Source of the DNA: Macrostomum lignano
Lineage: Eukaryota
DNA: 64,000 bases
Assembly: GCA_002269645.1 (NCBI GenBank)
Contig: NIVC01003327.1
Coordinates: 6,033 to 70,032, forward strand
Reading direction: 5' to 3'
Shown here: positions 8,498-29,614 of the stretch, in pieces
How the letters are laid out: each line of letters opens with the position of its first letter
Position numbering within the stretch: position 1 is the stretch's first letter
Program-made: the position numbers and the translations under genes
The notes under the pieces: model-generated
The model's database searches: none
What the model was told of the DNA's origin: nothing
Seen by the model: only the letters and a program-made list of their open reading frames with translations

Positions 8498-11400
8498 ATG
8501 GCGCACAAAGATGCCTTAGACCTGAAGCTCACAAAGGAGTTACAAGACATTCTCAGCAATAAGCCATATAAGCTTTCAAAAGAGTTCAGTCAAGATGATC
8601 TGGCAATTGACAATAAATTCTTAGGTAATTCAACATTTACTTGATAACCTTGATTGTACTTTAGATTACAATTAATTTACATATATATATTATATATATA
8701 TTAAGACGCAGAGAGGAGGCCCCTTCCACGCACGCGTTCGCAGAACAGGCGGGAGGGGCAGGCAGCAGCAGCCTGAGGGGTCAGCTCAAGCGCCTGCAGG
8801 TCCGCAATGAGGCAGTTCATTAGGGTGGCAGTGCGAGCCTGGCCACGGCGCAATTGTTCGGTCGGCCGGTGCAGCATGGCCAGGGCCAGAGGGACGGGCG
8901 CGCCGCGACCCAGGGTCCGTAGGCAGTGGCCCAGCAGCATCTGGCGGCGCCGGCGCAGTATGGCACTCAGGGGCGGAGTTCCGGCGCGGGCCATCAGAGC
9001 GTTGGTCGGCAGGCGATCCGGATAGTGCACGCCCAGCGCGTAGCGCAGCAGCGATCGGTAAAGCGCGTCCAGGGCTCGCTCTCGCGTTTCGGTCAGCGGC
9101 ACAGCCTCCATGCCGTACAGAAGAATCGGCTCGACGGCCGTGCGAAACAGGCGCACCTTCAGGTCGTCTCTGGCAGCTGAATTAAAAACGTTCCTGAGGA
9201 GGTGAGCGGCGCGCCAGGCCTGATTCCTCCTGTCGGAGACAATCGCATCGGGGCTCATCACCAGGGCGCCGAGGTACCGGAAGTCCTCGCACACCGCGAT
9301 GCGATCTCCATTGGGCAGCGTTAGAGTTGGGGCGGTATTCGTGCCCATGTGCAGCGCCTCCGTCTTGCGAGCATTCACCAGCAGCCCAACACGGGCGCCC
9401 TCGTCGCACAGCCTTGTGAGAGCGCGCTGGGCCGCAGCTGGGTCGCGGCAGAGCAGCGCGATGTCGTCAGCATACGCGAGAGCGGGAAGCGAAACATCAG
9501 GGTGTCTGGAGCTTCGGCGTGGGACCAGCAAGTAGCTGTCATCCTCGCGGAGGGACCGACGAAGCACGTAGTCCACAACCACGAGGAAGAGCAGAGGAGC
9601 CAGCGTGTCACCCTGAAGAACGCCTAAGCTGGTGCCGAACTCTTCTGTGGGGCCGTCGCTCGACATGACAAAAGCCCTGGAGTCGCGGTAGAGGTCCATC
9701 ACCGCACTCACCAGCGCAGCAGGCACGCCATATTGCGATAGAAGCCACGCGATCGCAGGCCTGGACACCGAGTCAAACGCCTTGCGAAAGTCGACGAAGA
9801 TGATTGACACGGAGCGCTGGCGGGTCTTGCAGGCCTCGATGACAGAGCGGATGGTGGCAACCTGCTCGGTGGTGGACCTACCCGGGCGGAAGCCGCTTTG
9901 GAGGCTCAGCAGCAGCGGGTTGAGGCCGGGCAGCAGGCGGTTGCGCAGAATTGCGTTCAGCAGCTTCAGCGTTGTGCATTCCAGTGCGATGCCCCGCTGG
10001 TTGTCCAGGCTGGTGGAGGCGCCTTTCTTCGGGATGGAGACGATCTTGGAGGTGCGCCATTGCTGAGGAGCTGAGGCGGTCTCGTTGCCTCCAAGGCTGC
10101 AGTGTTTGTTCAGCAGGCTGGTGATGGTTGGGGTGAGTTCGGGCAGCTTCAGGACCCTGGGAGGGATGGCGTCCACCCCAGCGGCGGCATCAGCTCGCAT
10201 GGTCCTCAGTGCTCGGTCAACCTCGCCTGCAGTGATGGGGCCGGTGTTGAAGGCGCTCGGCTGGGCTGGAGTGAAGTCCGGGATTGGCAGAAGAGGCGCA
10301 GTTGGAGCGGGCGCGTTGAGCACCTCGCGGTAGTGGGCGGCCAGTAGAGCCTTGCGGTGCTCGGTGGAATCGGCGCCGACGATGGTGCTGGGCCTGGGTT
10401 TCCTGCCTGTCAGCTGGTTGATGGCCCTCCAGGCAGCGCTATGGCGGCAGTTGTCAGTGGCGAGTTGGATTTCGCTCACAACCTCTTCGATGAAGGCTTC
10501 AGTCCGTCGGGCGTAGATGCGCTGCAGCTCGTCCCTGGCAGCACTGGACTGGTCGCTGTCATGGCCGTGGAGTGCAGCAGTGCTCTGCACATGCCGCCTT
10601 GCCTGGGAGATGACGGGATCGCGGTCCCACAGTGTCTTTGGATGGTTTGCCTGTCTCCGTGGGAGAAGCGCTGCAGCATCCTCAACAGCGTGATGGAAAG
10701 ACTCGAAGGACTCGGCTGGAGCAGGAGTGGCGGCAAGCAGCTTGCGAAGGAAGGCCTGCCGCGTGTCCGGGTTTCTCAGGTCGGCCCAGAGCGGGTGAGG
10801 TGGCGCAGGCCGGAGCTTTTGCCAGTGCAGGTCGAAGTCGCATGCCACCAGGCGGTGATCAGATTGAACGCAGTCGGGGCGGATATTGAGGACTCTGCGC
10901 ACCCTGGACCTCAGACCAATTGGGCAGAGAATCCAGTCCAGCCGAGTGGTTCGCCCGTTGGGACCAGAGAAAGTTGGGAGCTTGCTGAAGCGCTGTCGCA
11001 AGGGGCCGTTGACAGTTATCAGATCTCTGGCCTGGATAAAACTAGATAGAAAAGGAGAGTTGGCATTGGGGGTGCCACAGCTGTTCTTTACCAAGCGGCC
11101 GTCAGCTGGCAGTGGCGAGTTGAAGTCACCAGCGACAATGACAGAATCACGAGCAGGGATGGAATCAAGCGTGCAGCCCAGGGTGTCGTAAAGGGCTTCT
11201 GTCTCAGATGGATCTTCGCTGGTCCGAGGGGCCGTTGGGGCATAGACGCAGATGACTTGCAGATGAATTGCAGACGCAATTTACATAGCTACCTTGTATT
11301 TCAAGCATACTACATTTGTTAAACAATTACTGCTAAAAATTTCAAGAAAATTATACTGTAATTTAACGAGTGTCACATTTTCACGGTCAGGTCTAGACCA

Positions 11401-14400
11401 CGACATTCCAAAGCTGGGTCGCAGCAAAGCTGTGATCGTTTCTGGCATAGCATTCTCTGCCAACTGCGACGTTGCAATGATCCAGGAGGCCAAACCATCT
11501 GCCCGAGGCCTCTGGTACCTGCCGGCTGGCAGACTCGAACTTAATGAGTCATTGGAAGTAAGCAATAACTGCAATAGTTATTTACCATTATTTTAAATGA
11601 TCTGCAAACATTGATCTTTAAAAAGTAAAGCATTAGTGTGCATTCAAGAGAATCATCTTGCCTATCTGAAACACTGTTTGTGTCCCTGAAAATATTGTTT
11701 AATAAACTTTTTTTACCTAAAGGGCCAGATACAGAATCTAGCACAGGACTGCGGGCCAGAGGGGAGAGGAAAGGGAAGAGAAAAGAGACGAGAGACGAGA
11801 GAGAAGAGAAAAGATATGAGATTTGAAAGAGAGCTGAGAAGAGACACAAACCTCGAGCGGACCGGATTGCTATTGTGAAATTTCAAAGTACCCGAGGGCC
11901 GGATAGAGAGGCTTGGCGGGCCGGAGTTTCTCGACCCTTGGTTTAAAGCATGCAAATCTTTAATCCTTTGAATAAATCCTTTCATAATTTATTCAAACCA
12001 AAACACTGGTACATCCCAGACCAATGAATCACATTTCCAAACGCTTTGGCATTTGGAACACCAAAAAAGTAGACAACTTGGAGTATTTCGACTAAAACAG
12101 CCAGATGGATGCAGGATGAAGATGTTACCGTGACTAGAGGGTTACAGAGTCGCAGTTTTAGAAACGCGTCTAAAAAGACTCTCAGACCAAAAACCGACGC
12201 TAAAACAGCGCTAATTTTTCTTACGGTATAAAAAATTCCTGCCATTTCGTCTGTTTTCTAGGACGCGGTCAAGCGCGAATTCCTCGAAGAGGTTGGACTG
12301 CAATTCGAGCCACGCCTATTAGTCAGCATCGAATGCCGCGACTGTCATTGGATTCGCGTCAACTTTCTTGGCGAAATTGTCGGCGGAAAGTTGAAGGCAA
12401 GTTTGCTGTTTTTTTCTTCTAGTCAATTATTTGGCCACAAAACCATCTTCAGTGTATATTTATTTAAGTTAAAAACTTGATTTGCATGTTGACTCTGATA
12501 GATTTCTTGTTAATAATTTAACAAGGAATTATATTTTGCGTTCGCCAACCACACTGCACTGGTCAGACGACCTATTAAATTTTGACGCTTGAGGTTGGAG
12601 ACTAGCTTTGCTTTGGTAGAGGTTGTTGATTAGAGGTTAGTTTTGGCCTTGACCTTTAGAAGTTGGCGTTACTTTATACGAGCTACGAGCGTAACACTTG
12701 GACGCTGACAGACTCGCTCGAATAGCAACAGGTCTGATTCGTCTAAGCGTCTAAGCGACCCTTTGAAAACGTTACCGTGACAAGAATCGCAAAAGAGTCA
12801 TTGCAAACAACTCACTAGTGAGTGCCTCTGACGACTCTTGTGACTTTTTTACCGACTCAAATGACTGTAGAAGCGACTGTTGAGCCACGAGCGCATGGTT
12901 GTAGAATCGTAAAATGATTCGCGAAAAAGTTGTCCAAAAGTCGTGTTAGCGCTTATCTTTCTACTACCTCCAGTAAGACTAAATTAGAGTTGTTATACAT
13001 GTAAATGCGAAATGCGATTCTATAATTCATAAAGTGATGCAGACGCGCTTTTAGACTCCTAGGATACGAATCTACGGCTCCAGAGTCATTACAGAAGTGC
13101 ACCAAAGTCACTCGCGTCACCCCAGTGTTGTTTCAGAGTCGCAAACAATAAAACGCCTCAAACTGACTCTTAGGCGAATCTTTGAAGACTTTTTGGCGAC
13201 TTTTATCGTGACATTTCGTCGTTTCAGAGTTGTCTAGAGTTGCACATCTTTCCTATTTTGCCTGTGTTATCACAAGAGCTCAGGGACGACGCAAGTGACT
13301 CTGGGATGCTTCTTGGCCTAAGTAACCGTTTTCATCGGGCCGTATGGACCAGGAGGTGCTGCTTTTGACTGCAGGCGCTCCAATGCAGAGGACGGGCACT
13401 CGCTCGGCGTTTTGTCGATTTTCAGTCTATCTTAATCTTATTTTATGCTATCTCTATCTTAACCAGTCTGTCAGCAAATATGAGCACTATCACGATGCTG
13501 TTTGAGATACTTATTTATAAATTATTTATATCATACAACCGCAATTTCAACTGCAGAACAAACCGGACGAAGAGTCTCTATGCGCCAAGTGGATCCCGTT
13601 GAAAGACGTTATTGGGTAAGTTGATTAAGAATGTATAATTACATGTCTACTAGAAGTAGTATGCATTCTTTAAATTGTGCACGAAGAAAGTATGTTTAGA
13701 AGTTACATGTAACTATTAAATTATTTCAGAGCGCGCATTGAACTTCGGTGAGTTATCAAATTTTGTCTTTAAAAATGTCACACACTTCAAATATCTTACA
13801 TTACTTCTGCATAGCTAATAAACTAACCAAATTCAGTTCAGCAGACATAATACCAATGTTAGTATTGGCTAATCATTTGGACACTCGCCGGAAGAAGCCA
13901 TCGATTCCGCGTCTGCCGTTAGCAGTCAGCTGGTCGGCGTGTCACGTGCGGCTGTTCATACATTGTCCGGGTGGCGCTGTCAGCAGCGATACGGATTCGT
14001 CTGTGTCGAAGGTGCTCTGTCGAGTGCTGCCAGATGGCGCCGGTGCCCGGCTGCCTGTGGTGCGAATGCAGCACCCGGGTAGCTTCGGGGTCCTTGCCGG
14101 CACTCTGACTGAAAAGGTGACGTACTAACTATAGTTTCTTAATGATTTTTTAGCATTTTAGACCACCGCTTGTCAATATCGAATTTTTAGACAAGTCAAT
14201 TAGCACTGACATTGTCATCCGAAGGCACTAAAAGACAAAAATATTCAATTAGTAGTAGTATGATATAAAGGTCTGAGCCACACTTATTGCTCGGGCGCAG
14301 TGCGCGCCAGCTCGCTGGATGACTCAGCCCCTTATATCACACTACTACTACCAGGAGGTCAGAGTTGCAAGGTGTCTGAGATAAATATATAATATATATA

Positions 14401-17400
14401 TATATATATTGTGTGAGGGTGTTGAGGGTGAGGGCATGTGTGGGCATTGGCATGTGGAATATTTCGCAGAACACAGATTTTTCAGAATTTTTATACTTTT
14501 AAAAAAGGAGGGCGCCCTCGCCCTCATGCCCTCACTCATTTTTAAAATCACAAAAATAAGTGAAAAATGACTAAAAACAGGTGAAAATGGTCTGAAAACA
14601 GCGATTTTTGTGTTTTTCAAATATTTTGAAAAGGTGCAATTTTCACGATTCCAGCTCTAAAACCATGAGAAAAGTTGGATTCACGGGTCAATTCAATGCA
14701 ATTTCAGGTATATACAATATGAAAGTGTCATCCAATTTAACGATAGTAAATTTTAAATACATAAAATGGCCTTCAGTAAACCATTATTTCTAGGAAATGC
14801 TTTAGATATTCAGTCAGCTATAACAAAACTACCACCCATCTTCTGCACGATACTTTTACTGGGTCTTCTGTTTGCAATTCATTCAGATTGTGTGCATGCA
14901 TGTGTAATGTTCGTCATTTTTGTCTATTTTTAGTAACAGAAAAATAGACGAACTGGAGAGAAAGAATTGGTTGCCAAAATCCAAAACCAAAACCAAAGCT
15001 AAAACTTTTTTGGTCGGATGATTTGGTCGCGAGTATTGGTCAGATTGAAATGTTGAGTGGGTGAGCGGGGGTAGAACCTCTACAGTATCTATTGAAGTGG
15101 CAAGTCTACGGGGGTCAGACAATAGCTGGCCATATTGTTGCGGTGTGAGCTTGTTTGTGTGTAGCGCGAATAGAAGCCCGAATTCCTGTGTTAGTCATCA
15201 GACTGTGTCTGCGACCCTTCGGGGCGATCGAGTGAAGTTTGCCTACTTGCTTTGCTATAGCCGACCATATTGTTGCAATGCAAACTTGTTTATGTGTAGC
15301 GCGAATAGAACCCCGAATTCCTGTGTCAATGCAATCAGAATGTCTGCGACCCTTCGGGGCAATTGAGTGAAGTTTGCCTACTCTGCCAAAAAACAACTCT
15401 GAGTCAAAATGTAAGCAAAGAGGTCATGCTAGTTTCCAAATATTCAAAAAATACTTTGTGACTTGAAAAATGAAAACTACATGGCTAAATTTTTCCTAGA
15501 AAAAATGGAAGCTAATAACCCAAGTGTACGAAATGCTCTACCAAAAAATACTATGATTCTATTATATCATTTTCTCAAATTAAAACCCACACTCGAAAGT
15601 CTCGACTAATTGCAGAAATTGATAAAGCTTACGATGAATATAAAGCTGAAATATTAAAACACACCGATTGTAAATGTCCCCCCTTATTTGTATTCATTCA
15701 GAGTATATCTTGCACATGTTGATAAATGGGCATTGATTTCGAGACAGCACATAAGGAATGATGAATTTTTCGTCATGCTGAAATTGAACATTTTCAAACT
15801 CCCCATAACCTTTGAGAAGTACATTAAAACCGATAAAATATATCGTTGAATTTATTTTTAATAAAATGGAACGAAAAAATCAAAACGATTCAAGTGTCTC
15901 TCCTGTGATCGTACAGGATCCGCTTCAAAACCATGATGCACCACCACCACCAAGATTGACAAATTTAAAACAAACAAAATCGTACGATAAACTAATTAAT
16001 CTCTATGGAGAACGTAATTTTAGATTCGGAAATTGCAGTATAACATAGAATAGTAAAACAAAGAAAAAAATACCGTCAGGTATGCCAACCAAAGCAGATA
16101 GGAATTCAACCTCCCCACCATTTCAACCAGAGGTAGACAACATGATTTGGATAGATACTCGAAATTCAAATATAACCATAATCGATATTGATAATGCTGA
16201 CCTATGCCCTGAGTTGAATGAACTGTGTATGACTCATTGTGATTGGATTGTTCAGACAAACAAGGGTCACCACTTTTACTTTAACAAGGTAGATGGATTA
16301 AAAGTAACGATTCAACAAAGTGTGGGTTTTGATATTCCGGCTTTAGTATTTGCTCCACCAGGTTTCTATTATGTCGATGGTGAAATGAAGGAATACAAAC
16401 ATATAGCCCGAAGGGTTAATTGACATGCCATATGTAATTCTTGAGGAGATAAATAGATTAATTAAGCCACAGGATAAAACAGAAAACCAAGAACCCGATA
16501 AACAAGCACTAAAAAGCACCGTTCCACCACCCACTTGTGAAGGAGTTTCAAGGTTGTTAAGTATAATTCAACACAAAAATCAAGACTATGATTCTTGGTA
16601 CAAGGTAGCACTCATACTCCGCGACATAGACAGTGGTGATGAAATGTACAAAGTATTCACTGATTGGTCAAAAGTAAATTATGATAAGTTCGATTCCGAG
16701 TCATGTAAAAGGGTGTGGAATAGCACCCGTGCCAGCTCTGCTGATGCACAGGACAGACTTACTATCGGTACGTTGAAGAAATGGGCTAGTGAAGAAAACT
16801 ATGGTAAATATAAGGAATGGAAAAGCAAATATGATTATTATGGTAGGATTTAGTATCTTGATGATAATTTCACTGACGTTAACATACCAACGTTGTTTAT
16901 GAATATAAGAAGAATAATATAATTTACAATAGCGATGGTATTTACTATTTTGATGATGATAAGTGGAGAGAACTAAGTAGTATAAATGACATATTTCTTA
17001 AAATATCACACCTTGTTAGCAGTGGGTTAAACCACCGAAAGACTAGACTTGAAATTGCAATTAAGAAGGCTGATGATAAAGAGAAGTTAAAAGCACTTGA
17101 AAAGAAACTAAAGAACACAATGAAGAATATAAATTCAATACAAGGAGCCAACAAACTCAAACAGGTAACTACTTTGTTCAAAGAGAGGTTTACTAACAAT
17201 GAAATTGAATTCGACATGAAATGGAATTTGCTAGGGTTTAACGATGGAGTATATGATCTCGCTACAGGTGAGTTTCGCTAGTATAGATATGAAGATTACG
17301 TTACTAAATCGGTGGGATATAATTACTCCGATGTACTTAGAGTTAGTGATGACGACTATGGCTTCATTGTTAATCTGCATAACCAAATCCATCCAGATCC

Positions 17401-20400
17401 AGAGAACAGAAAAAGTTGGGAATCCGTTATAGCCACAGCTCTAATGGGTAAGAATGTTGAAAACTTTATAATGTTTGATGGCGCTGGTGGAAATGGCAAG
17501 GGGGTTGAGGACAACCTACTTCTTAGAACTCTAGAATCTGATTATGCAGCACCACTGAGTCCTGATGTTTTGAATTCACCAATAAGAATAGACAGGCCAC
17601 AACCAGCCCTAGCACAAATTAATAAAAAGAGGTGGTTATCAGTCAAAAAGTAAGCGGTGTCTTGAACAATGCATTAATAAAATTACTAACTGGTGGTGGG
17701 GTTATCCAAGCTAGAAATTTACATTCAAGCCAGTGTAATGTCGTTTTACACGCAACTCTGATAGTCGAATGCAACAACAAGCCTGACTTCAGACAAAATA
17801 TTGGAGATGCAGAGAAGAGGAGAATTATCAATATTAATTACCCGTGCAAATATACAACAGATAACGAAATCATTAATTGATCCTGAGAAACACACTTACA
17901 AGGCCGATCCATATTTGAAAAGTGAGGAGTTTGCAGAGATGAAACACCTACTAGAAATTTTATAAAACCGAATGCTTCTGACATGAGAATGTATGACTCT
18001 GTTGAATTGACTTCATGAACTATTTGACCTCCAGCAACATTGAGATTATTAGTGCTACCTGGTGTTGGCGAAATCTTGATATAGTCTTCTTTCTTTTCGA
18101 AAAAACTAAAAGTTTTGTCCTCATATAGGTTCAGTATATACTTTTTGTTTTCAATTTTTGTACGAGAAATTTTAACTAAGCTTCGTGAGGTCTAAGAATT
18201 ATCCCATTACCCTGTTTCTCCTTTTCAACTTTAAACATCTTTAGCAGCCACTTGACTTCTTCGCTGGGTACTTGTTCGACTCTTTTAGCCGCATCAACTA
18301 ATACTCCGCTCCCTTGAGCCTTTTTCAACTCTTCTAGTTTTTTGTCGTTCAATGCTTTCTATTGTCTTATTATGCTTAGCATTGTTGGCTGTATTAACAT
18401 TTTTTGCAATCATTGTACCAACTCCGGAGGCTGCTCCGATACCACCCAAAATTGCTGGTAGCAAGCCCAATAGAGGAATTATTCCACCTTCATGTTCTTT
18501 CTGTTTGTCTTGCAATTCTCGAATCTTCTCTTTAGAAAGATACTGCTTTTGCTTATTTACAGTAACATACCTTGGTTTCCCCTCTCGAACATATCGATTG
18601 AGTCTGGCTTCAGTGTTTTTGTCGCTCATTTTTAAGGTCAGAATTTCTTCAAACCATTGCCTTGTCTCAAAGACACTTGAGACTGTTCTGCTGATCCTAG
18701 AGCCTTTTTAACAATGTCTTGAATGGCCTTGTTTGATTGAGAAGCTATCTGTTGCTCTTCTTCCATTCTTTTCTTTGCTTCTTTATCTCTACGTTTCTTT
18801 TTAATATATTCCAGTTCCTCACCTGCTTTAGACATGTCACTGTAGGTTTTCTTTGCGTCGAATATGTTTTTAGCTGCTGTTGCTGTTTTACCTATGGCAT
18901 CAGCTCCACTCACAATTTTACTTCCATGATTTGATAAAAAGTTTGTGACACCACTGATCATATCACCAATTCCTTCACCCTCTTTATCAACTAGTAGTTG
19001 TGAATCAGACGTTTCAATCTGACCTTTCGCCCGTTTGCAGTTTGTTCGATAGGCGCTCATTTTTAGTTGAAAAATTTGCTGGTAGAAGCTGGGATTTGTA
19101 AAATGATCCAATAATTTCTTCTCCATTCTCATCCTCAATAATGTAAGTTATGGGATTTGAGTACACAAATTTCTTAATCGTAAAAACCTCTGAAATTTTC
19201 CAATAACCCTTTCGACCCTTTTCAAAGTGCTCTTTGAATCTATAGATATGAACTTTGTCACCTACTTTAAAGTTTGGTTTCTCATTTGAAACCTCGAAGT
19301 AAGGCTTTGGTACTCGCTCAGGATGTTTAGATGCTTCTGAAGGAGTTATCAGAATCTCAGAATGGATTGTGTTGTACTTATCAACAATAGCTGGCAATAT
19401 GTGGAGCCACTTCTGGTTTCCTTGTAGATCAAATTCAAACCATAGTTTCTTTGTGAGAGTACGATTGAACCTCTCAATCATTGCATTCTTAGACTCGCCA
19501 TAAATTGAAAACATCTTGTTAATATACTCCCCGTTTTCATCTTTCTTTCTTATGTTGTCTTTTGAAAACGAGTATAGCTTGTACATATGCTAATTATAAA
19601 ACTCCTTGCCTTCATCTACACAAAGTCTCTCTGATCGTCTTCCTGATTCCTTAAATACTTTTTGGAAAGCTTCTGCAACTTCCGCTCCCGTCTTTGTTTT
19701 CAAAGGTACTGCCCAGGCGTCACGTGTAAAACCATCTATGATAGTGAGTGCATATTTGTAACCTCTTTTAGGAGGAAGGATTATTATGTCTGCATGCCAA
19801 ATTGTGTCTTTTGCATAGTGAATCATTTTTCTAAACAGTCTTGGTTTTCTGTATTCCCTATGCAGCTTCACAGCATCTTCATAGCTAAGACCCTTTCCAT
19901 AAATGGTTAGACAGTCTATACAATTGTTGGGGTTGTGAGTATGAATGCCTAATCCAAACCGAACTTTAGCCTTGATAATACGCTTTACTAGATTTCTAAT
20001 GAGTCTCTCTTTCACAGACAAGTCACTGGTTGGAATAGCATCTAAATCAGTTATCATTTTTTCATCAGCAATATGCTTCTTTGCTAGGGCTTCCTCTGGA
20101 GTTGAAGACGTTTTTTCAGCATCTCTATAGTTTTTGTCATGATAGTAAGCAGTCCAATCTATTGGTTTAATTGGTAGACTGTCATACCGAGGCCAGTCTG
20201 TAATTGGATTGAGTCTTTTGTCTAAATTTGTATCAGGCAGTTGTCCCTCAATCTTTCGAAAGAGGCTGGACTTTATCTTAAGGCTTCATCAGGATTAACC
20301 AGATCCTTCAGCCCCAACCCCATTAAGTCTCTGAACCTTCTCCATATCCTTGTCAACTGGGTCGGACGTACCTATGGTACTCGAACTTCTTTCGGACTTG

Positions 20401-21789
20401 TCCGTGTTATCAGAAGATTTAAGCTCTAATGCAATCTTTCAGTCAACGTGAACAAGGTCAATCTTTTTTACCTTCTCGAATCCAAAATAATTTTCTGCTA
20501 ATATTTCATATAGTCTGCCTAGTCTCATTTGAATAACTTTAATCTTGTGTGAAATCTTTAACTCTTCTTGAAAAAGATCATGAAGAATTTGATCATGCCC
20601 AACCTTATCATCAATTAGTTTCAGAAGGATTTTTCGAATTGTTTGCTCCATTTTTACTTTAGAAAAGTTAACAAGTGCTTATTCTATGACTAGCAAGGAT
20701 ATTGACTTCCTCACTCAGGCCACAACGTAACCTGCGAAAGAATACCCTGGAATTTGAAATTCGCCAGGATATTTTCCAGTGGAGAAGCTGGGTGGTAGTT
20801 TTGTTATAGCTGACTGAAAATCTAATGCAGAACCTAGAAATAATGGTTTACTGAAGGCCATTTTATGTATTTAAAATTTACTATCGTTAAATTGGATGAC
20901 ACTTTCATATTGTATATACCTGAAATTGCATTGAATTGACCCGTGAATCCAACTTTTCTCATGGTTTTAGAGATGGAATCGTGAAAATTGCACATTTTCA
21001 AAATCGCTGTTTTCAGACCATTTTCACCTGTTTTTAGTCATTTTTCACTTATTTTTTTGTGATTTTCAAAATGAGTGAGGGCATGAGGGTGAGGGCACTC
21101 TCCCTTTTAAAAAGTATAAAAATTCTCAAAAATCTGTGTTCTGCGAAATATTCCACATGCCAATACCCACACATGCCCTCGCCCTTAAGCACCCTCACAC
21201 AATATATAAATATATATATATATATATATAAATTTTTACATATTTATATACTCATCACACCACCTTGCAACTCTGACCTCCTGGTAGTAGTAGTGTGATA
21301 TAAGGGGCGAGTCATCCAGCGAGCTGGCGCGCACTGCGCCCGAGCAATAAGTGTGGCTCAGACCTTTATATCACACTACTACTTCAATTCTTTATAAATT
21401 GTTCTATAAACGTCTACTGCTTATGCTCAGGTATTTTAACGTCATTTTTTTATATTTCATTCGATTTTCAGTTAACAGGCCGTAAGGTGCAATTTAGAGC
21501 GGTGCTTCACAGCGAATTCCTTTCGGCTAACAACGCCAACTGCGGAATATTTCTCACTCTGCTGTGCCGTCTGTTGCCATGGCAACAGCAGTCCGCCTCG
21601 GCAACCGCAAAGCAACCTCCAGCGTTGCATCAGAACTTTGCTTGGCTTCCGTGTCCTCAGCTAGCTGACCCGCTGGTTTTGCCGGACGAGTTTGAGCAGA
21701 CTCTGTCGAACTCTGCCAAACTGAACGAACATTGCAGCCACCTGTGCCTGCTAGGAGCCTGCAGTCATTCTGATTTTCGGCTCAATTGA
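8498..21789 (+). CDS. NUDT18: Nudix hydrolase 18-like (8-oxo-dGDP phosphatase), 7 exons, ~367 aa
   Basis: Exons 8498-8624, 11391-11557, 12262-12396 (GC donor AG|GCAAGT), 13557-13615, 13730-13747 (18 nt), 13837-14116 and 21472-21789 are phase-consistent and total 1104 nt. They give [40 protein letters not shown] (Nudix box) and a C-terminal CGIFLTLL...PPALHQNFAW, both similar to NUDT18. Confidence 0.88.
8684..11277 (-). mobile_element. 5'-truncated APE-RT non-LTR retrotransposon (RTE-like) in NUDT18 intron 1
   Basis: TSD AATTTACATA at 8674-8683 and 11278-11287. A (TA)n tail at 8684-8700 directly abuts the ORF stop codon. Confidence 0.9.
8701..11277 (-). CDS. LINE ORF2: partial AP endonuclease + reverse transcriptase
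   Basis: The frame stays open upstream of the listed 11094 start. APE motifs: VYAPT, GDFN, LDWIL, SDH. RT motifs: QSGFRPGRST, FVDFRKAFDSV, GVLQGDTLAPLLF, YADD, FRYLG. Confidence 0.93.
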   Translation of the reverse strand, partial: ASAIHLQVICVYAPTAPRTSEDPSETEALYDTLGCTLDSIPARDSVIVAGDFNSPLPADGRLVKNSCGTPNANSPFLSSFIQARDLITVNGPLRQRFSKLPTFSGPNGRTTRLDWILCPIGLRSRVRRVLNIRPDCVQSDHRLVACDFDLHWQKLRPAPPHPLWADLRNPDTRQAFLRKLLAATPAPAESFESFHHAVEDAAALLPRRQANHPKTLWDRDPVISQARRHVQSTAALHGHDSDQSSAARDELQRIYARRTEAFIEEVVSEIQLATDNCRHSAAWRAINQLTGRKPRPSTIVGADSTEHRKALLAAHYREVLNAPAPTAPLLPIPDFTPAQPSAFNTGPITAGEVDRALRTMRADAAAGVDAIPPRVLKLPELTPTITSLLNKHCSLGGNETASAPQQWRTSKIVSIPKKGASTSLDNQRGIALECTTLKLLNAILRNRLLPGLNPLLLSLQSGFRPGRSTTEQVATIRSVIEACKTRQRSVSIIFVDFRKAFDSVSRPAIAWLLSQYGVPAALVSAVMDLYRDSRAFVMSSDGPTEEFGTSLGVLQGDTLAPLLFLVVVDYVLRRSLREDDSYLLVPRRSSRHPDVSLPALAYADDIALLCRDPAAAQRALTRLCDEGARVGLLVNARKTEALHMGTNTAPTLTLPNGDRIAVCEDFRYLGALVMSPDAIVSDRRNQAWRAAHLLRNVFNSAARDDLKVRLFRTAVEPILLYGMEAVPLTETRERALDALYRSLLRYALGVHYPDRLPTNALMARAGTPPLSAILRRRRQMLLGHCLRTLGRGAPVPLALAMLHRPTEQLRRGQARTATLMNCLIADLQALELTPQAAAACPSRLFCERVRGRGLLSAS
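11720..11940. mobile_element. hAT (Charlie-like) MITE end fragment
   Basis: Ends GGCGGGCCGGAGTTTCTCGACCCTTG with upstream GGGCC(A/G)GA motifs typical of hAT subterminal regions. The partner end and TSD were not found. Confidence 0.3.
14251..14845 (+). repeat. Left terminal inverted repeat of the Polinton-like element
   Basis: Reverse complement of ~20784-21383 with scattered substitutions and a ~19-bp indel. The first 99 nt are self-complementary at their ends. Confidence 0.92.
15130..15382 (+). repeat. Two diverged 135-bp direct repeats with predicted hairpins
   Basis: Copies start at 15130 and 15265. Both keep GTAGCGCGAA...TTTGCCTAC, CAGA-loop-TCTG and CCC-TTCG-GGG. Confidence 0.85.
15520..15850 (+). 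pseudogene. Possible small viral ORF of unknown function (start lost)
   Basis: Stop-free frame of ~108 codons, PKCTKCSTKKYYDS...KHTDCKCPPYLY...KTDKIYR*, directly upstream of the primase. No family was recognised. Confidence 0.25.
15866..17965 (+). pseudogene. Prim-Pol + PriCT-2 + D5-like SF3 primase-helicase (disrupted)
   Basis: Prim-Pol motifs IIDID, TNKGHHFYF and LVFAPPG. PriCT-2 motifs DYDSWYKV, FTDWS and TIGTLKKWA. D5_N motif LLGFNDGVYDLATGEFR. Walker A GAGGNGKG, motif C ECNNKP, arginine finger EKRR. In-frame TAG at 16046 and 17279, and frameshifts near 16405, 16850-16915, 17645 and 17878. Confidence 0.9.
17960..18140 (-). pseudogene. N-terminal remnant of a Polinton-type major capsid protein
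   Basis: The minus frame ILNLYEDKTFSFFEKKEDYIKISPTPGSTNNLNVAGGQIVHEVNSTESYILMSEAF resembles my recollection of Polinton MCP N-termini. It runs into the 3' end of the convergent helicase. Not in the ORF track. Confidence 0.5.
18176..18629 (-). CDS. Adenovirus pX/mu-like core protein (one frameshift)
   Basis: Basic N-terminus followed by GGIIPLLGLLPAILGGIGAASGV, similar to the adenoviral pX GG(I/F)LPLLIP motif. Removing one A from the run near 18340 extends it to LEELKKAQGSG...QGNGIILRPHEA*. Confidence 0.6.
18638..19060 (-). CDS. Polinton-type small virion protein with G-x-G-x-G motif and amphipathic helix
   Basis: MSAYRT...EGEGIGDMISGVTNFLSNHGSKIVSGADAIGKTATAAKNIFDA followed by a K/E-rich coiled coil. 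The ORF is intact (track 18638..19138; the ATG at 19060 is the likely start). Confidence 0.6.
   Translation of the reverse strand: MSAYRTNCKRAKGQIETSDSQLLVDKEGEGIGDMISGVTNFLSNHGSKIVSGADAIGKTATAAKNIFDAKKTYSDMSKAGEELEYIKKKRRDKEAKKRMEEEQQIASQSNKAIQDIVKKALGSAEQSQVSLRQGNGLKKF
19014..20285 (-). pseudogene. Parvovirus-type PLA2-like domain fused to an rve DDE integrase (one premature stop)
   Basis: The frame is open from 20285: LPDTNLDKRL...PIDWTAYYHDKNY...KHIADEKM (HD plus D). Integrase catalytic residues lie in WHAD, LCVDEGKEF and MIERFNRT, with a C-terminal PITYIIEDENGEEIIGSFY. ORFs 19590..20057 and 19014..19586 share one frame, separated by a single TAG. Confidence 0.88.
20390..20651 (-). pseudogene. 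PD-(D/E)xK restriction-endonuclease-like ORF (disrupted)
   Basis: QMRLGRLYEIL...GFEKVKKIDLVHVD*KIALELKSSDNTD when read through one TGA, giving a D...ELK nuclease-like motif. Confidence 0.5.
20784..21383 (-). repeat. Right terminal inverted repeat of the Polinton-like element
   Basis: Inverted copy of 14251-14845. 21286-21383 can fold on itself. Confidence 0.92.
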
Positions 21790-22217: not shown

Positions 22218-23150
22218 GGGTTGCTTTCACAAACGCGAAATTTCACAACCGCTAAATCACCTACTTTCATAAACGCGAAACTTCACAACCGCGAAACTTC
22301 ACAACCGCTAAATCACCTACTTTCATAAGCGCTAAATTTCACAACCGCGAAACTTCACAACCGCTAACTTTTTTGCAGTCACTTTCATAAACGCGAAACT
22401 TCACAACCGCGAAACTTCACAACCGCTAAATCACCTACTTTCATAAGCGCTAAATTTCATAAACGCGAAACTTCACAACCGCTAATTTTTTTGCAGTCAC
22501 TTTCACAAACGCGAAACTTCACAACCGCTAAATGCCATCTACTTTCACAACCGCTAAATGTCATCTACTTTCACAACCGCTAAATGTCATCTACTTTCAC
22601 AACCGCTAAATGTCGTCTACTTTCACAACCGCTAAATGTCATCTACTTTCACAACCGCTAAATGTCGTCCACTTTCGCAACCGCTAAATGTCATCTACTT
22701 TCACAACCGCTAAATGTCATCTACTTTCACAACCGCTAAATGTCGTCTACTTTCACAACCGCTAAATGTCGTCTACTTTCACAACCGCTAAATGTCATCT
22801 ACTTTCACAACCGCTAAATGTCGTCTATTTTCACAACCGCTAAATGTCATCTACTTTCACAACCGCTAAATGTCGTCTATTTTCACAACCGCTAAATGTC
22901 ATCTACTTTCACAACCGCTAAATGTCGTCTACTTTCACAACCGCTAAATGTCGTCTACTTTCACAACCGCTAAATGTCATCTACTTTCACAACCGCTAAA
23001 TGTCGTCTATTTTCACAACCGCTAAATGTCATCTACTTTCACAACCGCTAAATGTCGTCTATTTTCACAACCGCTAAATGTCATCTACTTTCACAACTGC
23101 TAAATGTCGTCTGCGCGAAACTTTACAATCGCCAAATATGTCATCTACTT
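22218..23150 (+). repeat. Left foldback TIR: 26-bp tandem array (TTTCACAACCGCTAAATGTCATCTAC)
   Basis: Directly visible; inverted partner at 29615-30360. Confidence 0.95.
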
Positions 23151-24725
23151 TCTTATTATAGTAGAGTTCCATTGCCAATTGAGCACAGATACCGAGTGGT
23201 AGGTGTTACGTTCTGTAACAGTGACGTCAATAATTACTCTCAGTTAAGTTAAGGCAGATACTCGTACATTTTGCATATGTAATGAAGCTATTATACATTC
23301 GTCTTCTCGGTGGGGGCTTCATAAGACCAAAATTTCCTAATGTTTGAACTGTAAAGTACAGGGCAGTACTTAAGACACGGAAATTTAGGAATTATACAGA
23401 AATTATAGAGTAGTCTGAATATATTAATAATAAAACAGTATATAATTATACAGATTTAGGACTCGGAACTCGGAACAGAGGAGGGTTTTTTGACCGTGTC
23501 TTTAATGAAAGAACACTTGTTTCCCATTCGGGAAGAGAGCATACTCGTACTGTTTTATTTTCCTGGCCCTTGTGCCTTCCTCAATTCTCACCAGCCATAG
23601 CAGGTTCCGGCTCTACATTGATGGGGTAGCGGGGAAACGCGGGTACAAACTGCCAGAGTCTAGAGGTTGTATGACTCTGCGGACACATGTCTCACACTTT
23701 TTACGTTATACTGAAACGCAGTCACAACACATGAGACAGAAAATTTCACAACGTCATAATACTGTACTATCCTACTTAGCGTCTCAGTTTTTTTACTGTT
23801 TCTTTTTCTTCACTCACACGTGTTGGAAACAGAAAGAAAAAGACAAATTGTTTGCTGTAAGTTTTCACTGTACTCAATGATGTTGTAGTATCCATGCTCC
23901 ATGGTTTTCCACTTCGATTTCGACCTTTTGTATTATTCAACTTTGACAAACGGCAAGATAGCAACAACAAAACTGAAAAATGTGCAGGAAACTTGTGGGC
24001 ACTAAATTATACATTTAAATCCTGCTATATCTTTTAGAGGCTTTGCACCTTGAGTACACGGTTTATAGAACAAACGATGGAAAGCTTATGAACCGTAACT
24101 TGTTGTAACTTGAGAAAAAAGTGCGAATGCCACGTTCTTTAAAAAAGAAACCTAGATACTGCTATTTTAGAAGGATAAATGCTATAACAATGCGAACGAA
24201 CTCTAATTTTATTATAATATTTACTTTGATAATGGGACATTATTAGGCATTAGATAATAAGACTATGGGCCTAGTCTGAAGTACTTTTTCCTTGCGATTT
24301 TCTCTCGTATTGTTCATTATGATTATTCACATTGCTCACAGTTTTCTCTCTGGCCACTGGATTCCTATGCCCTATGGAATTTGTCAAGGTGCCACCCTCA
24401 TAAGTTTTGGCTAGCAATGCCGTCTCACAGGCCACTCTCACGAATTCTCCGTTTGTATCTTAACCAGATTTATGCACCGGGTACATGATAGCTGCTTATT
24501 GCTCGCAATAATATTTACGTTACTTCGAATCATATTTGTTGTTAATTCTTATTACTAACCTCTCCCCGTCCTTTTTAACTTCTACGCTGAGAGCCTATCG
24601 TCCTTTTCTGCACTTAATTCTTATTTTCAATCTGTTCAATCTGAATGCAGACTCTGCTTCCGCCATATATTCCTGTGGTCACGTCCTGCGGCCCTGTGGC
24701 CCTTTTCTATTACGAAACGTCATTG

Positions 24726-26870
24726 CTAGAAAAAAATAGGAATGAACATCACACAATCGCCTCGACACACAGGGCACTGCAGTAGTCTGATCTGAATATT
24801 CTCTGAACAGATGGTACAAACAACGTGACCACAGGGATATGTGGCGGAAGCAGAGTCTAAGTTTTCTAGACATACGGGGCATCGTCGTTCGCCGCCGCCA
24901 AGGCCCTGGTCGACGGTGTCATCTTGCGGCTGCCCACCAGCACCGCCAAGGGCCGGCTGGGCGATGACTTGCGGCTGCCCACCAGCGCCGCCAAGGGCCG
25001 GCTGGGCGACGTCTTGCGGCTGCCCACCAGCACCACCAAGGGCCGGCTGGGCGATGACTTGCGGCTGCCCACCAGCGCCGTCAAAGGCCGGCTGGGCAAC
25101 GTCGTCTTGTGGCTGCCCACCGGCGCCGCCAAGGGCCGGCTGGGCGATGACTTGCGGCTGCCCACCAGCGCCGTCAAGGGCCGGCTGGGCGACGTCGTCT
25201 TGTGGCTGCCCACCGGCGCCGCCAAGGGCCGGCTGGGCGACGTCTTGCGGCTGCTCACCAGCGCCGCCAAGGGCCGGCTGGGCGACGTCTTGCGGCTGCC
25301 CACCAGCACCGCCAAGGGCCGGCTGGGCGATGACTTGCGGCTGCCCACCAGCGCCGCCAAGGGCCGGCTGGGCGACGTCGTCTTGTGGCTGCCCACCGGC
25401 GCCGCCAAGGGCCGGCTGGGCGACGTCTGGCAACTGACCTACAGCCAGTTCAGCAGCATCATGTGGGTCGTCTAGAGGGAGACCAGCTGATGCACTCAAA
25501 TTGCGTAGAACCTCCAGAGGAGTTGCCCGTCCACTGCTTAACAGGTCATACTGCTGCCGAATGCGGATACTTTTTAGTACACTGCGCTTTCCTCGCGCTC
25601 GGCGGATTGGAACACCACGTTTTAGCCTATTTAGGTCAGCTGCATAGGTTGAACAAATGCTTCTTTTCGTTGAGGAATAAAGCGCTACAATGAAATCCCA
25701 CATATTGGGATGAGCGGTCTCTACAAAGGTCCTCCATTGACTATGGTAGGATTCCTGCTTACTATTGGTCCTGTCTTCGCAGTTGTGCACAGAGAGGATG
25801 GCTGCACCAACCCTCTCGAGCCAGTAGGTCCGGATGTACGTGTAGGCTCGATGCAGTGCTTCCATCTTGTCATTGGCAAGTGTTGTAACAAATGTCTCAG
25901 GTCGCAGGACAGCATGAAGTGCAGCAAGGTGTTGCGCAGGAAGCAGAGGCAAGCACAAAAGCAGTCTCACATAGCTTCGAACGTCAGTGTTGCGGCACAC
26001 TTCACTCCATAGTCCAAGCTTTTTTAGCTTCGTGAGGACAGCTTGCGTGTAGTGAAACCAACATCCATGAGCGGTTGATGTCGGAAATGCTTCCAGCAGC
26101 GAATCTCGCAGCGCAATTTCGTAATCCGTCATGACACTCAGTGGCTCGAAGGCAGGAAACAGCTGCTTTACCTTCGACCACACTAAATGGTAGAGGGCCT
26201 TTGTCTTGCCAGTAAGTAGCGCAAAAAAGCAAGGAAAAAAGAAACCTTGTTTAACGATTCCAATGGTCACTAATTGAAAAAACAGGCGAGGCACAACTCG
26301 GAATGTGCCATCAACGAAAATGTTGTTTGCATTTTGAAGCTCAGCCAGGAGTTCAGGGTGAGCAAAAAAAACAGCAGCATGCTGGTCAACTTGACTGCTT
26401 CCCTGGAAAACTTTCTTGCCATCTGCTCCGCAGTTTTGCAGATGCATGTCCACGTCATGCAGAAGTTCAACAGCCTCATCAACAGATGTTGGGATTCGAG
26501 GCTGTACAGCTCGTCTTGCTCGCCACATGCGGAGCTCCACTTCTGGAAATCCAACATCTGGCCCAGCTGCTTCATCATTTGTTATTTCGTCAAAAACTAC
26601 TCGTAGGCGCTTTTCTGGCTGTCTTGTCGCAGCTTCATTTAGTCGTCGCTTTAACTTCATCTTTCCAATTTCTTCATCAGGGATTGGACCATGGTTATGA
26701 ATCCCACTGTGTGTGGCAGTCTCACCACTCAGCATAACTTTGGCGAAGCAGTCTTCATTACGACATGTAAAATAGTGCTTCTCGTTCAATGTTCTTTTGC
26801 ACCTGTATGCATGCTGGTCTATTAGGAGAAGCCTTGAGCCCCTACGGCCTTCAACAAATTCAAATGGCAT
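24726..26870 (-). CDS. FLYWCH-MULE transposase with 15/16-aa repeat linker and C-terminal C3HC4 RING (714 aa, intact)
   Basis: FLYWCH-like N-terminus (G..LLLIDQHAY...YFTC...C.A...H.H). MULE motifs FVDGTF, VMTDYE, CWFHY and RTNSKQESYH. Eleven PQ(D/V)..AQPALGGAGGQ units precede the RING CPVC...PCGH..C..C...CPVCRG. Confidence 0.93.
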   Translation of the reverse strand: MPFEFVEGRRGSRLLLIDQHAYRCKRTLNEKHYFTCRNEDCFAKVMLSGETATHSGIHNHGPIPDEEIGKMKLKRRLNEAATRQPEKRLRVVFDEITNDEAAGPDVGFPEVELRMWRARRAVQPRIPTSVDEAVELLHDVDMHLQNCGADGKKVFQGSSQVDQHAAVFFAHPELLAELQNANNIFVDGTFRVVPRLFFQLVTIGIVKQGFFFPCFFALLTGKTKALYHLVWSKVKQLFPAFEPLSVMTDYEIALRDSLLEAFPTSTAHGCWFHYTQAVLTKLKKLGLWSEVCRNTDVRSYVRLLLCLPLLPAQHLAALHAVLRPETFVTTLANDKMEALHRAYTYIRTYWLERVGAAILSVHNCEDRTNSKQESYHSQWRTFVETAHPNMWDFIVALYSSTKRSICSTYAADLNRLKRGVPIRRARGKRSVLKSIRIRQQYDLLSSGRATPLEVLRNLSASAGLPLDDPHDAAELAVGQLPDVAQPALGGAGGQPQDDVAQPALGGAGGQPQVIAQPALGGAGGQPQDVAQPALGGAGEQPQDVAQPALGGAGGQPQDDVAQPALDGAGGQPQVIAQPALGGAGGQPQDDVAQPAFDGAGGQPQVIAQPALGGAGGQPQDVAQPALGGAGGQPQVIAQPALGGAGGQPQDDTVDQGLGGGERRCPVCLENLDSASATYPCGHVVCTICSENIQIRLLQCPVCRGDCVMFIPIFF

Positions 26871-27856
26871 TTGTGGTATCGTTTATTTGATGAAGATAGC
26901 GTACTGAAAGAGGAAAATTTTGAAAGGTAATATCCATTTGATTACATTGTTCATAAAAATACAACTAAGTGTATGTACAACCACTTAAAATATGATCCTA
27001 TTACACTTCCAAATATTCTAAATCTATTACTATTTGTAGATAGAAATCTAAACTATAGCATATGGGCAACTCTGCTAAAAAATTATTGTATTGCTAAGTT
27101 GGCAAGACAATCCCAGTTTTGTCTTTTTTGACATCACTTCTATATTTTTGGTACTAAATGTAAAAGTGAAAATCCTCCATTGAAGAAGAATAGGGATAGA
27201 ACTCCCATTGCCAGAATTCCATTCCCTGAAATTCATCAGCTCAATAATCCCATGACCAGAATTCATCTTTCAAATCCTCTCCAAATCCACAATGAAACCT
27301 TTGAAATATCATATCTTGTTTTCCCTGTTTGGAAAAATTGGCTGTCATTGTCTCCAGACCAAGACTCTCCTTTCTCCCCTCTCTTCTTTGCTCTTTCATC
27401 TCTAATCTCTCATCTCTGCACTCTCTTTTTTATTATATTCTAGCTCTTATTTTTCGTCTCTACTCTCTTATTTCTCCTCTTTACTTTTCAATGTAAGCAT
27501 ATTGGCAAGTCACGGTCACGGGACCCTCACTGAAGTCCCTACTTAAGTATACCATACGGCATAGGTCATAAAATTGTGAGTCAGAAATCATCTATTAAAA
27601 TTTCTATAAGATTCTAGTCGAATCAGAGTATAATGCCATAAGCTATACAGTTTTAGTTAGCTTAGTAGCGAGTTATAGAAAAAAATCATTTTATAATATA
27701 GCTGTTTTGTAGAAAACTAAGTAGCTAAAAATAAAATTTAATATTAACTTGGAGACTAAGAAGCCATGGGCCTGTATAATAAAAAGAGGACCATAAATAA
27801 AAGGTACAAAATTCTATTATTATTAATACATACATGTATATAAAGCTGAGCTGAAC

Positions 27857-27889
27857 CATGGACTTCTATACTTAGTATAGAAGTCCATG
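27857..27889. mobile_element. 33-bp perfect-hairpin mini-element (P-like ends)
   Basis: CATGGACTTCTATAC-TTA-GTATAGAAGTCCATG flanked by the 7-bp direct repeat GCTGAAC (27850-27856 and 27890-27896). Confidence 0.7.
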
Positions 27890-27940
27890 GCTGAACCAAT
27901 AGGCAGCTCTGCTCTAAAAACGCAGATATCATGGTTTAGC

Positions 27941-29422
27941 CATAGAACTCTAGATAATATGGAAGCGAAGGCTTTTTTGGACCTTTACATAACCGGGCCG
28001 ACTTGAAAGTAACGTGAGCATAGGATTTCCATTGAATCTTATTCCTGATTCTTGATTATTTTAAAAATCTATCAGGTTTCCTTACAGTACAGATTACAAA
28101 TGCTGGTTCGGACGGTACACTTGAGCCTCCTCGGTCAATCTGTAAACGTTGAAGAGCGAAAGCCTTTGAAGCTGGCTTCAAAGTTGACTTGCAGCATGAT
28201 TGATCAAAAAAGCGTTTAAAAAATCAAAATCAAGGCAAGCAGTGGAATGAGACAGCAATTTTGTTCGATCCATTGTTCCACCCTGGCATGTTCATAACGT
28301 GAGGACGAGCACAATCGATAGGCACAGGAAAGATTGCAGCCGAGATCAAGTCAGATCAGATATGGACTGGCAGCTATGCCATCTTACTGATGTAGAAAAA
28401 AACTACGTGCGCGACTGGAAAATCTGTAAAAGCAGTTCAGTGGAGTTGCGCCTCAGGATATTCAGTACCTACCTTGCAGTGGAATCATCAAGCAGCACCC
28501 GAGGCATAGATGAAGAAGTCAAGGAATTCGTTCGCGAACTGGAGGCAGTGGGTGAATTGTGAGATGCTGATGACATCGTCACTTTCTATGTCGCAGGCAA
28601 GTTTGCCAAGTCGATTTCAATGCAAAAAAAACTGTCGAGCGAGCCTGTGCCGAACTGCTGGTTGCTGTTGAAGATAAAGGAGGCGTTAACGAAGCCCCTT
28701 CTACGTTCCTGTGAAAGATTAATCGAGGAAGCTTGACGGTACCGTCTGGACCAGAGCTTGCAATCTGTAAGGAGCCTGGCAGATTTTGAAGCTCTTGTGT
28801 GACTGAAACCTGCTATGATAAAAACAGAGCTGCTCTTTTCTCTGGCAACTCCTGTAAGTTTTCTTATATCTTACCAACACAACAAAGACTTGCGTATATA
28901 CGAGCTAGCTCGTAACTGTACAGTTTATTTCTCTTACCCGCATCCCCTCCTGCCCCGCCATGGTCCCGCGTTTCTTTTTGCAGAGGGTAGCGAGTAGCTA
29001 TACAGTTAACTGTTTATAGAAAGGGTTTTTTTTGAATCCCCAAGCACATTATACAGCCATCACCCGTTCTTTGTCAGTTTAACTTGACGTGAGAATGACT
29101 GAAACTACACACCAAGTTTTCTTATTGCACTCAAATGGCAGTTATCACTATCTTTACAATATTCCCATAACCTAACCCTAAACCCTAAAAAGTTGTTTCG
29201 GACCCATGTACAACGGCTCAGTGCTCATATTCTAGTATCCACATTTCATTGGCCCTCAGCCCCTCACTCAATACCCCTTTTATGGAATGGGAAGCAACGG
29301 CCCAGTTTTGTCAAAGCCAAAGGGAATAAGAAAAAACAGTCGGCCAGCTCAGGGCCCGGTTATTTAAAAATTTTCAAACCCTTGTTAAAAGACTTCACTT
29401 CCATATTATCTATAATTCTATG
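27941..29422 (+). mobile_element. Non-autonomous P-superfamily-like DNA transposon nested in the MULE
   Basis: ~30-bp TIRs CATAGAA(CTC/TTA)TAGATAATATGGAAG and TSD GTTTAGC (27934-27940 and 29423-29429). Confidence 0.85.
28300..28800 (+). pseudogene. Degenerate P/THAP9-like transposase C-terminal fragment
   Basis: Across frameshifts and stops it reads FYVAGKFAK...C..CAELL...STFL*KINRGSLTVPS, similar to the Y(I/V)AG...CxxC...RGGL..PS motif of P-type transposases. Confidence 0.5.
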
Positions 29423-29614
29423 GTTTAGCTTAGCACATCAGTTGTGGCTTGTAATGTAAGTAGGTAGCTTTTTCAAAACGTCCTTTAAAAAATTATAACC
29501 GCAGTCTATGGGCTGTGCGCCGCGTTGTACAGCCTGCAGTGTCGTGTAGTTTTTTCAATACGATTTGTGTTAAAAATAATTTCATAAACCGCAGAAACCT
29601 GCAAAAATGATAAC

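Follow-up and report, generated by a model that had tools for sequence, protein, structure and literature searches.

The contig NIVC01003327.1 of Macrostomum lignano (assembly GCA_002269645.1) carries a broken gene resembling the D5-like primase-helicases of viruses, and it raises the question of what replicated the element to which this gene once belonged. We analysed 64,000 nucleotides of the contig (positions 6,033 to 70,032 of the forward strand; hereafter the window), in which an earlier note had seen the gene as the apparent sole replication gene of an element that acquired a new replication module or of an independent viral lineage. We are fairly confident of a different account: the D5 gene is dead and lies in a deleted Polinton, full copies of the same family encode also an exonuclease-deficient, protein-primed DNA polymerase of family B (pPolB), the two proteins likely cooperate, and the integrase gene is interrupted by a group I intron predicted to self-splice. 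The intron is more surprising and weightier than the D5 gene, because group I introns are reviewed as absent from metazoans except for non-bilaterian lineages and five sharks (PMC10964413; this and the other papers cited are represented by portions of their texts).

The proposed order of domains, archaeo-eukaryotic primase (AEP, Prim-Pol), PriCT-2, D5_N and superfamily 3 (SF3) helicase, was borne out. In searches with profile hidden Markov models PriCT-2 (E 6.9e-13) exceeded its Pfam cut-off, as did D5_N (E 1e-13), and the Walker A motif GAGGNGKG is located at 17480-17503. The Prim-Pol domain did not pass in the window, with 19.3 bits (E 0.0017) against a cut-off of 22.8 bits, and is supported through a sister copy with a naturally open frame. 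The sister D5 contains the AEP motifs DID and KGHH, all 30 Atlas matches of its N-terminus are Prim-Pol clusters (best 0.96), and a PHROG DNA primase matches over residues 101-667. Its predicted structure resembles the PrimPol of African swine fever virus (ASFV) and poxvirus D5/E5. The sub-threshold Prim-Pol score and the low confidence of the AEP part of the structure model both weigh against this assignment, and sequence searches of PDB with D5 and with pPolB returned no significant match. With the four domains in order and the catalytic motifs present, 15866-17961 nevertheless reads as a real D5-like gene. It is no longer intact: we counted three in-frame TAG stops (16046, 16851 and 17279), where two had been noted, and four frame-changing indels near 16405, 16886, 17632 and 17871, in agreement with the about four frameshifts noted before. 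The end placed at 17965 is not natural, as the gene is truncated at about 17961 by a deletion joint and about 115 C-terminal codons are gone.

D5 matches are present on 40 contigs of the genome. The family pPolB lies within 2.5 kb of D5 on 23 of them by coordinates and on ten more in fetched DNA, which makes 33 of 40. The other seven are the window, C543 with a fragment of another pPolB, three contigs with fragments or interrupted copies (C843, C1884 and C947, no pPolB in the stretch of DNA examined) and two with D5 at contig ends. The flanks of C3326 and C184 are identical to those of the window, so that all three represent the same insertion, and both C3326 and C184 retain pPolB residues 926-1027. 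Since these alleles share the insertion site and keep the pPolB end, the polymerase was lost from the window insertion after landing. A single replication gene is therefore a property of this remnant only, and in its relatives pPolB follows D5 in the very interval that is deleted here. The possibility that an independent lineage without pPolB replicated by the primase-helicase alone would agree with the remnant itself and with descriptions of AEP-SF3 genes replacing pPolB in group 2 Maverick-Polintons (10.64898/2026.06.19.733378) and Polinton-like viruses (PLVs; PMC11296320), but it is refuted by the polymerase end in the same-site alleles and by the pPolBs adjoining D5 on 33 contigs, and we assign it next to no probability. 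A mobile mini-element composed of D5 and integrase was also considered, as C3326 and C184 likewise lack most of pPolB, and was ruled out because the three copies have identical flanks.

The linkage holds also in the opposite direction. D5 adjoins the family pPolB at 25 of 25 places, no D5 match was found within 25 kb of the other pPolBs (0 of 66 places), and all 35 D5_N matches in the genome fall at places of this family. Several points weigh against a strong reading of these counts: the pPolB survey covers 92 of 1172 candidates, D5 of C543 adjoins a fragment of an unrelated pPolB, and the family copies are kin, several of them being the same insertion on duplicated contigs. The linkage thus represents one evolutionary event, and functional coupling cannot be shown by it.

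In the full copies, which reach 17.8-18.7 kb in the sisters (7133 bp remain in the window), the genes follow in the order D5, pPolB (tail-to-tail), membrane open reading frame (ORF), fibre, protease, ATPase, major capsid protein (MCP) and integrase. The sister MCP belongs to PF21738 (double jelly-roll, DJR), the A32 ATPase to PF04665 and the integrase to PF00665, and the protease was recognised by tblastn to a protein matching PF00770. A 272-aa ORF without Pfam match stands at the penton position in the sisters and may encode the minor capsid protein. Judging from the long terminal inverted repeats (TIRs), the 6-bp target-site duplication (TSD), pPolB, RVE integrase, A32 ATPase, DJR MCP and protease, the element is a true Polinton. 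About 9.5 kb is missing in the window in comparison with a sister, comprising the 3′ end of D5, pPolB, the membrane ORF, fibre, protease, the penton-position ORF, ATPase and most of the MCP gene. With respect to the capsid block, the block of D5, pPolB and membrane ORF points one way in L041-L046 and L051-L060 and the other way in L021-L035. The terminal palindromes of the D5 family fold with z values from -4.6 to -9.9; the arms co-vary in several sister-end variants, a few ends, including those of the window, have mismatched arms, and no flip/flop terminal isomers were present among 40 of 196 scored TIR candidates. The ORF at the fibre position (L021:8079-9503) contains two F5/8 type C (discoidin) domains. 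The copy on C543 (L048-L050) is a chimera in which the family TIR and D5 are joined to the pPolB end, protease, ATPase and MCP of another Polinton.

The family pPolB is of the adintovirus type, with a terminal protein (TP)/vOTU part and an EndoVII insert, and it matches the PolB of a Parasteatoda adintovirus. Compared with 12 homologs, it has lost the acidic pair of Exo I and the Exo III region is deleted; the N..D of Exo II, the TP side, the vOTU Cys/His and the Pol A, B and C motifs are kept. Exo I reads YAILDY, not Y(A/C)DFE, in 12 of the 13 family loci scanned, and the span containing Exo III (45 aa versus 120) is short in 9 of the 13. The D-x-E of Exo I is kept in 99 of 102 homologs of at least 1000 aa, and a 31-row tree shows the family pPolB as sister (100/97) to a proofreading enzyme, the pPolB of a different Polinton family in the same genome. 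Because D-x-E is nearly universal in the homologs and the sister is a proofreading enzyme, the loss of the exonuclease is derived.

Both D5 and pPolB are under purifying selection. The pairwise ratio of nonsynonymous to synonymous substitutions (dN/dS) is 0.29 for D5 (AEP 0.38, SF3 0.18) and 0.16 for pPolB (polymerase part 0.17, TP-vOTU 0.19), next to 0.14 for the integrase and 0.21 for MCP. On contigs C2071 and C25, an integrase/capsid block with 95% DNA identity to the D5 family is combined with a pPolB whose Exo motifs are intact. No D5 was found in the C2071 element, and its end, common to four more contigs, displays no terminal stem like that of the D5 family. The comparison supports one integrase/capsid block carrying either a proofreading pPolB without D5 or an exonuclease-deficient pPolB with D5. 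The swap of a replication module, one of the two options of the earlier note, hence holds in a changed form, in that a pair of pPolB and primase-helicase was exchanged, not a D5 gene in place of pPolB. It should be held against our account that the hairpin contrast involves one D5-less lineage only and that the dN/dS pairs among family copies are not independent.

How the module works can be proposed along the following lines. The pPolB likely starts synthesis from the terminal protein at the AGTAGT ends, and the AEP-SF3 protein, as a hexamer, likely unwinds the template and possibly primes, perhaps at the terminal palindrome. The two proteins would then work together and divide the labour, which we propose because in mavirus and PLVs the loss of the exonuclease has been published as going along with the gain of a helicase (PMC11161782). 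The same genes could also be caught midway in a replicase turnover, with the AEP-SF3 protein replicating from a palindrome origin and pPolB being lost. The missing exonuclease, the palindrome so far confined to the D5 lineage, and the multi-replicase intermediates and end-module turnover proposed elsewhere (10.64898/2026.10.13.758929, section 13; PMC11296320) point in this direction; however, pPolB is more constrained than D5 (0.16 versus 0.29), its Pol A/B/C motifs and vOTU Cys/His are intact and the ends retain the AGTAGT of protein-primed elements, so we regard turnover as unlikely.

The D5 gene may have been captured from an environmental donor of the type of nucleocytoplasmic large DNA viruses (NCLDV) or PLVs. 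Its nearest relatives are environmental proteins of at most 36% identity, and relatives were found also on viral contigs, many of them in giant-virus bins. None of 82 viral D5 relatives had the pPolB, integrase or MCP of the family nearby when searched by tblastn and a pPolB profile, and two gave weak ATPase matches. Such distant relatives would suit a D5 that is mobile or accessory cargo, a passenger unconnected with the loss of the exonuclease; AEP-SF3 genes may be mobile alone (10.64898/2026.10.13.758929) and one acquisition suffices for perfect linkage. Yet every D5 domain is under purifying selection, D5 is turned around jointly with pPolB, as a single block, between the two arrangements, and D5 is confined to this family in the genome. 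The passenger role seems improbable to us, and cooperation of D5 with pPolB is the reading that we retain.

The integrase gene of the family is split within its PLA2 (phospholipase A2)-like domain by an insert that we identify as a group I intron, predicted to self-splice from the viral mRNA. The Rfam model RF00028 matches the window at 20247-20495 on the reverse strand with 30.5 bits, in a broken copy without the P4 region (intron 20238-20729). In the sisters it scores 82.6-88.9 bits at four of five loci, the fifth being intron-less, and in the genome all 28 candidates scored gave 72.7-91 bits against a cut-off of 50. The 49 loci examined comprise 27 with the intron, 18 without it and four not covering the site. 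Exon 1 ends in GCAGGT in every intron-bearing locus and in ACTGGC in every intron-less one, and removal of the intron restores the intron-less frame G/PGT in the PLA2-like domain (slashes mark junctions). The intron ends follow the pattern U/...G/, an indel shifting the terminal G in one of the 27 intron-bearing loci, and the splice-site U pairs with G in P1 of the fold. From its resemblance to the Tetrahymena core, the subgroup may be IC1-like. A 15-37-nt segment similar to GTCCGA..GGTACGTC occupies, in the alignment, three different peripheral intron positions in different copies.

Two further intron lineages were identified at the same site. The second, without ORF, is found in another Polinton family and scores 65.9 bits (40 of 40 scored matches); the third reaches 41.6 bits (E 3.1e-9, 24 long matches), which is under the cut-off. 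Altogether three lineages share one PLA2-integrase site in over 90 copies (e.g. L041:964-1843, L266:7877-8178 and L273:944-1270). In the second lineage, 9 of 13 introns (L276, L278-L285) end in A, not G. The first and second lineages differ by five double-sided pair changes, three of them in P7, all coming from one divergent row of six. P3, P4 and P7 are conserved between them, and the P7 changes are compensatory. Four runs provided contigs only, their RNA status being guessed: the X14 junction equals the intron-less allele, and in one X16 contig (depth 3.26) an exon end of the intron type is joined to exon 2, with four other letters. We treat the latter as a weak hint and not as evidence; a DNA allele matching this junction was not found in the assembly. 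Environmental viral contigs contain similar cores (75-78% over P6-P9), and no nuclease, PLA2 or rve was found at 245 environmental loci with the intron motif.

Of 27 copies of the first intron lineage, 11 have kept the ORF whole (228 aa), and its dN/dS is 0.37. Its predicted model (pLDDT score 81.6) suggests a PD-(D/E)XK fold like that of the restriction enzymes EcoO109I and AvaII, and the sequence matches Eco47II in Pfam (E 1e-4). Relatives of the nuclease are metagenome proteins, some of which run on into ribozyme-like sequence, and proteins on giant-virus contigs; beside the 12 viral relatives scanned, out of 59, no group I intron reached the cut-off. The intron likely spreads by homing with this restriction-enzyme-like nuclease. 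From known recognition sites, its target would be a GGNCC-type core at the exon junction. Put at its boldest, Polintons would have brought active group I ribozymes into an animal nucleus, where at least three lineages compete for one site, one of them using a homing nuclease recruited from among the type II restriction enzymes, which cuts a GGNCC-type core spanning the junction of the exons and leaves resistant intron-less alleles as survivors; in addition, a mavirus-type exchange of proofreading for a primase-helicase would have happened independently in an animal virus. We lean slightly towards this combined scenario.

The features of the window element are collected in Table 1.

Table 1. 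Positions of the Polinton remnant and its parts in the window.
Feature	Position	Strand	Remarks
Host NUDT18-like exon upstream of element	11387..11557	+	
TSD, TCAATT, 6 bp	14245..14250; second copy 21384-21389	+	from sequence
Left TIR, starts AGTAGTAGT	14251..14848	+	
Terminal 99-nt palindrome	14251..14349		arms mismatched here; 25-bp stem in most sisters; fold z -4.6/-7.5
Two ~135-bp direct repeats upstream of D5 gene	15122..15382	+	
Broken AEP(Prim-Pol)-PriCT2-D5_N-SF3 helicase gene	15866..17961	+	4 frameshifts and 3 stops; 3′ end lost by deletion
Prim-Pol stretch with the motifs DID and KGHH	16139..16339	+	PF09250 E 0.0017, below cut-off; Atlas matches in sister
PriCT-2	16548..16787	+	PF08707 E 6.9e-13, above Pfam cut-off
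D5_N	16901..17392	+	PF08706 E 1e-13, above Pfam cut-off
Deletion joint, microhomology ATTTT	17957..17961		D5 gene meets 5′ end of opposite-strand MCP
MCP gene, 5′ remnant	17957..18155	-	85% to sister MCP; sister = PF21738
Two small basic ORFs	18294..19147	-	no Pfam match
Integrase gene exon 2 (PLA2-like/RVE), one stop	19014..20237	-	rve PF00665 E 3.2e-9
Group I intron, 492 nt	20238..20729	-	P4 region deleted; 836-895 nt in sisters
Intron ORF remnant, PD-(D/E)XK nuclease	20394..20651	-	
Integrase gene exon 1	20730..20861	-	start inside TIR
Right TIR	20779..21383	-	terminal palindrome 21286-21383

The left and right TIRs of the remnant differ by 24 substitutions in 578 aligned bases. The ~135-bp repeats had no Rfam match and, among the mapped loci, are restricted to the window and the two alleles that share its insertion site. 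The two basic ORFs stand where we would expect core proteins and may represent them. The insertion probably falls within an intron of the host NUDT18-like gene. An INSM1-like sequence, Hint and Beclin domains and the NUDT18-like exon mark the host as an animal. Elsewhere in the window we noticed an exon with a Hint module (32495-33169, reverse strand), a Mutator-like (MULE) transposon with tandem-repeat TIRs (22518-30126) encoding a 718-aa FLYWCH-MULE-RING ORF (24726-26882), and an ORF of a non-LTR (long terminal repeat) retrotransposon with endonuclease and reverse transcriptase (8701-11280, reverse strand).

The two forms of the element amount to a natural experiment within one genome, as the same capsid/integrase block is served by a proofreading pPolB or by an exonuclease-deficient pPolB plus primase-helicase. 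The proposed trade-off between exonuclease and helicase (PMC11161782) can be tested on this pair of closely related enzymes; the case also bears on the possible origin of NCLDV-type replication from Polintons (PMC4405056). If the introns splice, an animal nucleus hosts self-splicing introns in protein genes and a new source of homing nucleases, and the annotation of Polinton integrases is affected.

With the Maverick/Polintons of animals (Polintoviricetes; 'adintoviruses', PMC8502044) the family shares TIRs starting with AGT, the 6-bp TSD, pPolB with TP/vOTU and EndoVII insert, RVE integrase, A32 ATPase, DJR MCP, protease and a PLA2-like domain. Unlike them, it possesses an exonuclease-deficient pPolB, a separate AEP-PriCT2-D5 gene and a terminal palindrome, and its PLA2-like domain is fused to the integrase and split by a group I intron. 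The exonuclease motifs are reported as conserved across the pPolBs collected in PMC10748475, where swaps of pPolB in nematodes are also published. The mavirus virophage likewise combines a pPolB with remnant exonuclease, a separate SF3 helicase and an RVE integrase (PMC11161782). In contrast to mavirus, AEP and PriCT-2 form one protein with the helicase here, the capsid is of the Polinton type and the polymerase branches from within the proofreading pPolBs of animal Polintons; the pairing of exonuclease loss with a helicase therefore appears to be a case independent of mavirus.

The domain order and fold of the family D5 are the same as in AEP-SF3 proteins of PLVs and group 2 Maverick-Polintons and in NCLDV D5/ASFV PrimPol. 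The premise that such an architecture is foreign to canonical animal Polintons needs correction, as it falls within known variation: some polintoviruses carry D5-like primase-helicases (PMC4405056), AEP-SF3 genes are reported from group 2 Maverick-Polintons (10.64898/2026.06.19.733378) and insect PLVs (PMC11296320), and genomes with multiple replicases have been published (10.64898/2026.10.13.758929). The available portions of PMC8502044 and PMC11131425 do not mention a primase. An AEP-SF3 gene in Polintons is thus already known, and D5 here makes up a replication module of two genes together with pPolB. Elsewhere, AEP-SF3 replicases are usually described as replacing pPolB and accompanied by a tyrosine recombinase, whereas here the gene stands beside a constrained pPolB and an RVE integrase.

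Group I introns of animals are listed as non-bilaterian or rare (PMC10964413, PMC9240083), and we found no report of them in animal Polintons in the literature, represented by parts of main texts without the supplements, which may bear on this point. Those of PLVs are reported, in the portion of PMC12220804 available, only from protist hosts. The introns of protist PLVs and of giant viruses are likewise RF00028 ribozymes, in PLVs also in a gene of a small double-stranded DNA virus (PMC12220804). The introns described here differ from those of protist PLVs in residing in an animal nuclear genome, in a PLA2-integrase gene and as three lineages at one site, and the ORF of the first lineage, with its predicted EcoO109I/AvaII-like fold, would stand outside the four eukaryotic families of homing nucleases listed in PMC10964413.

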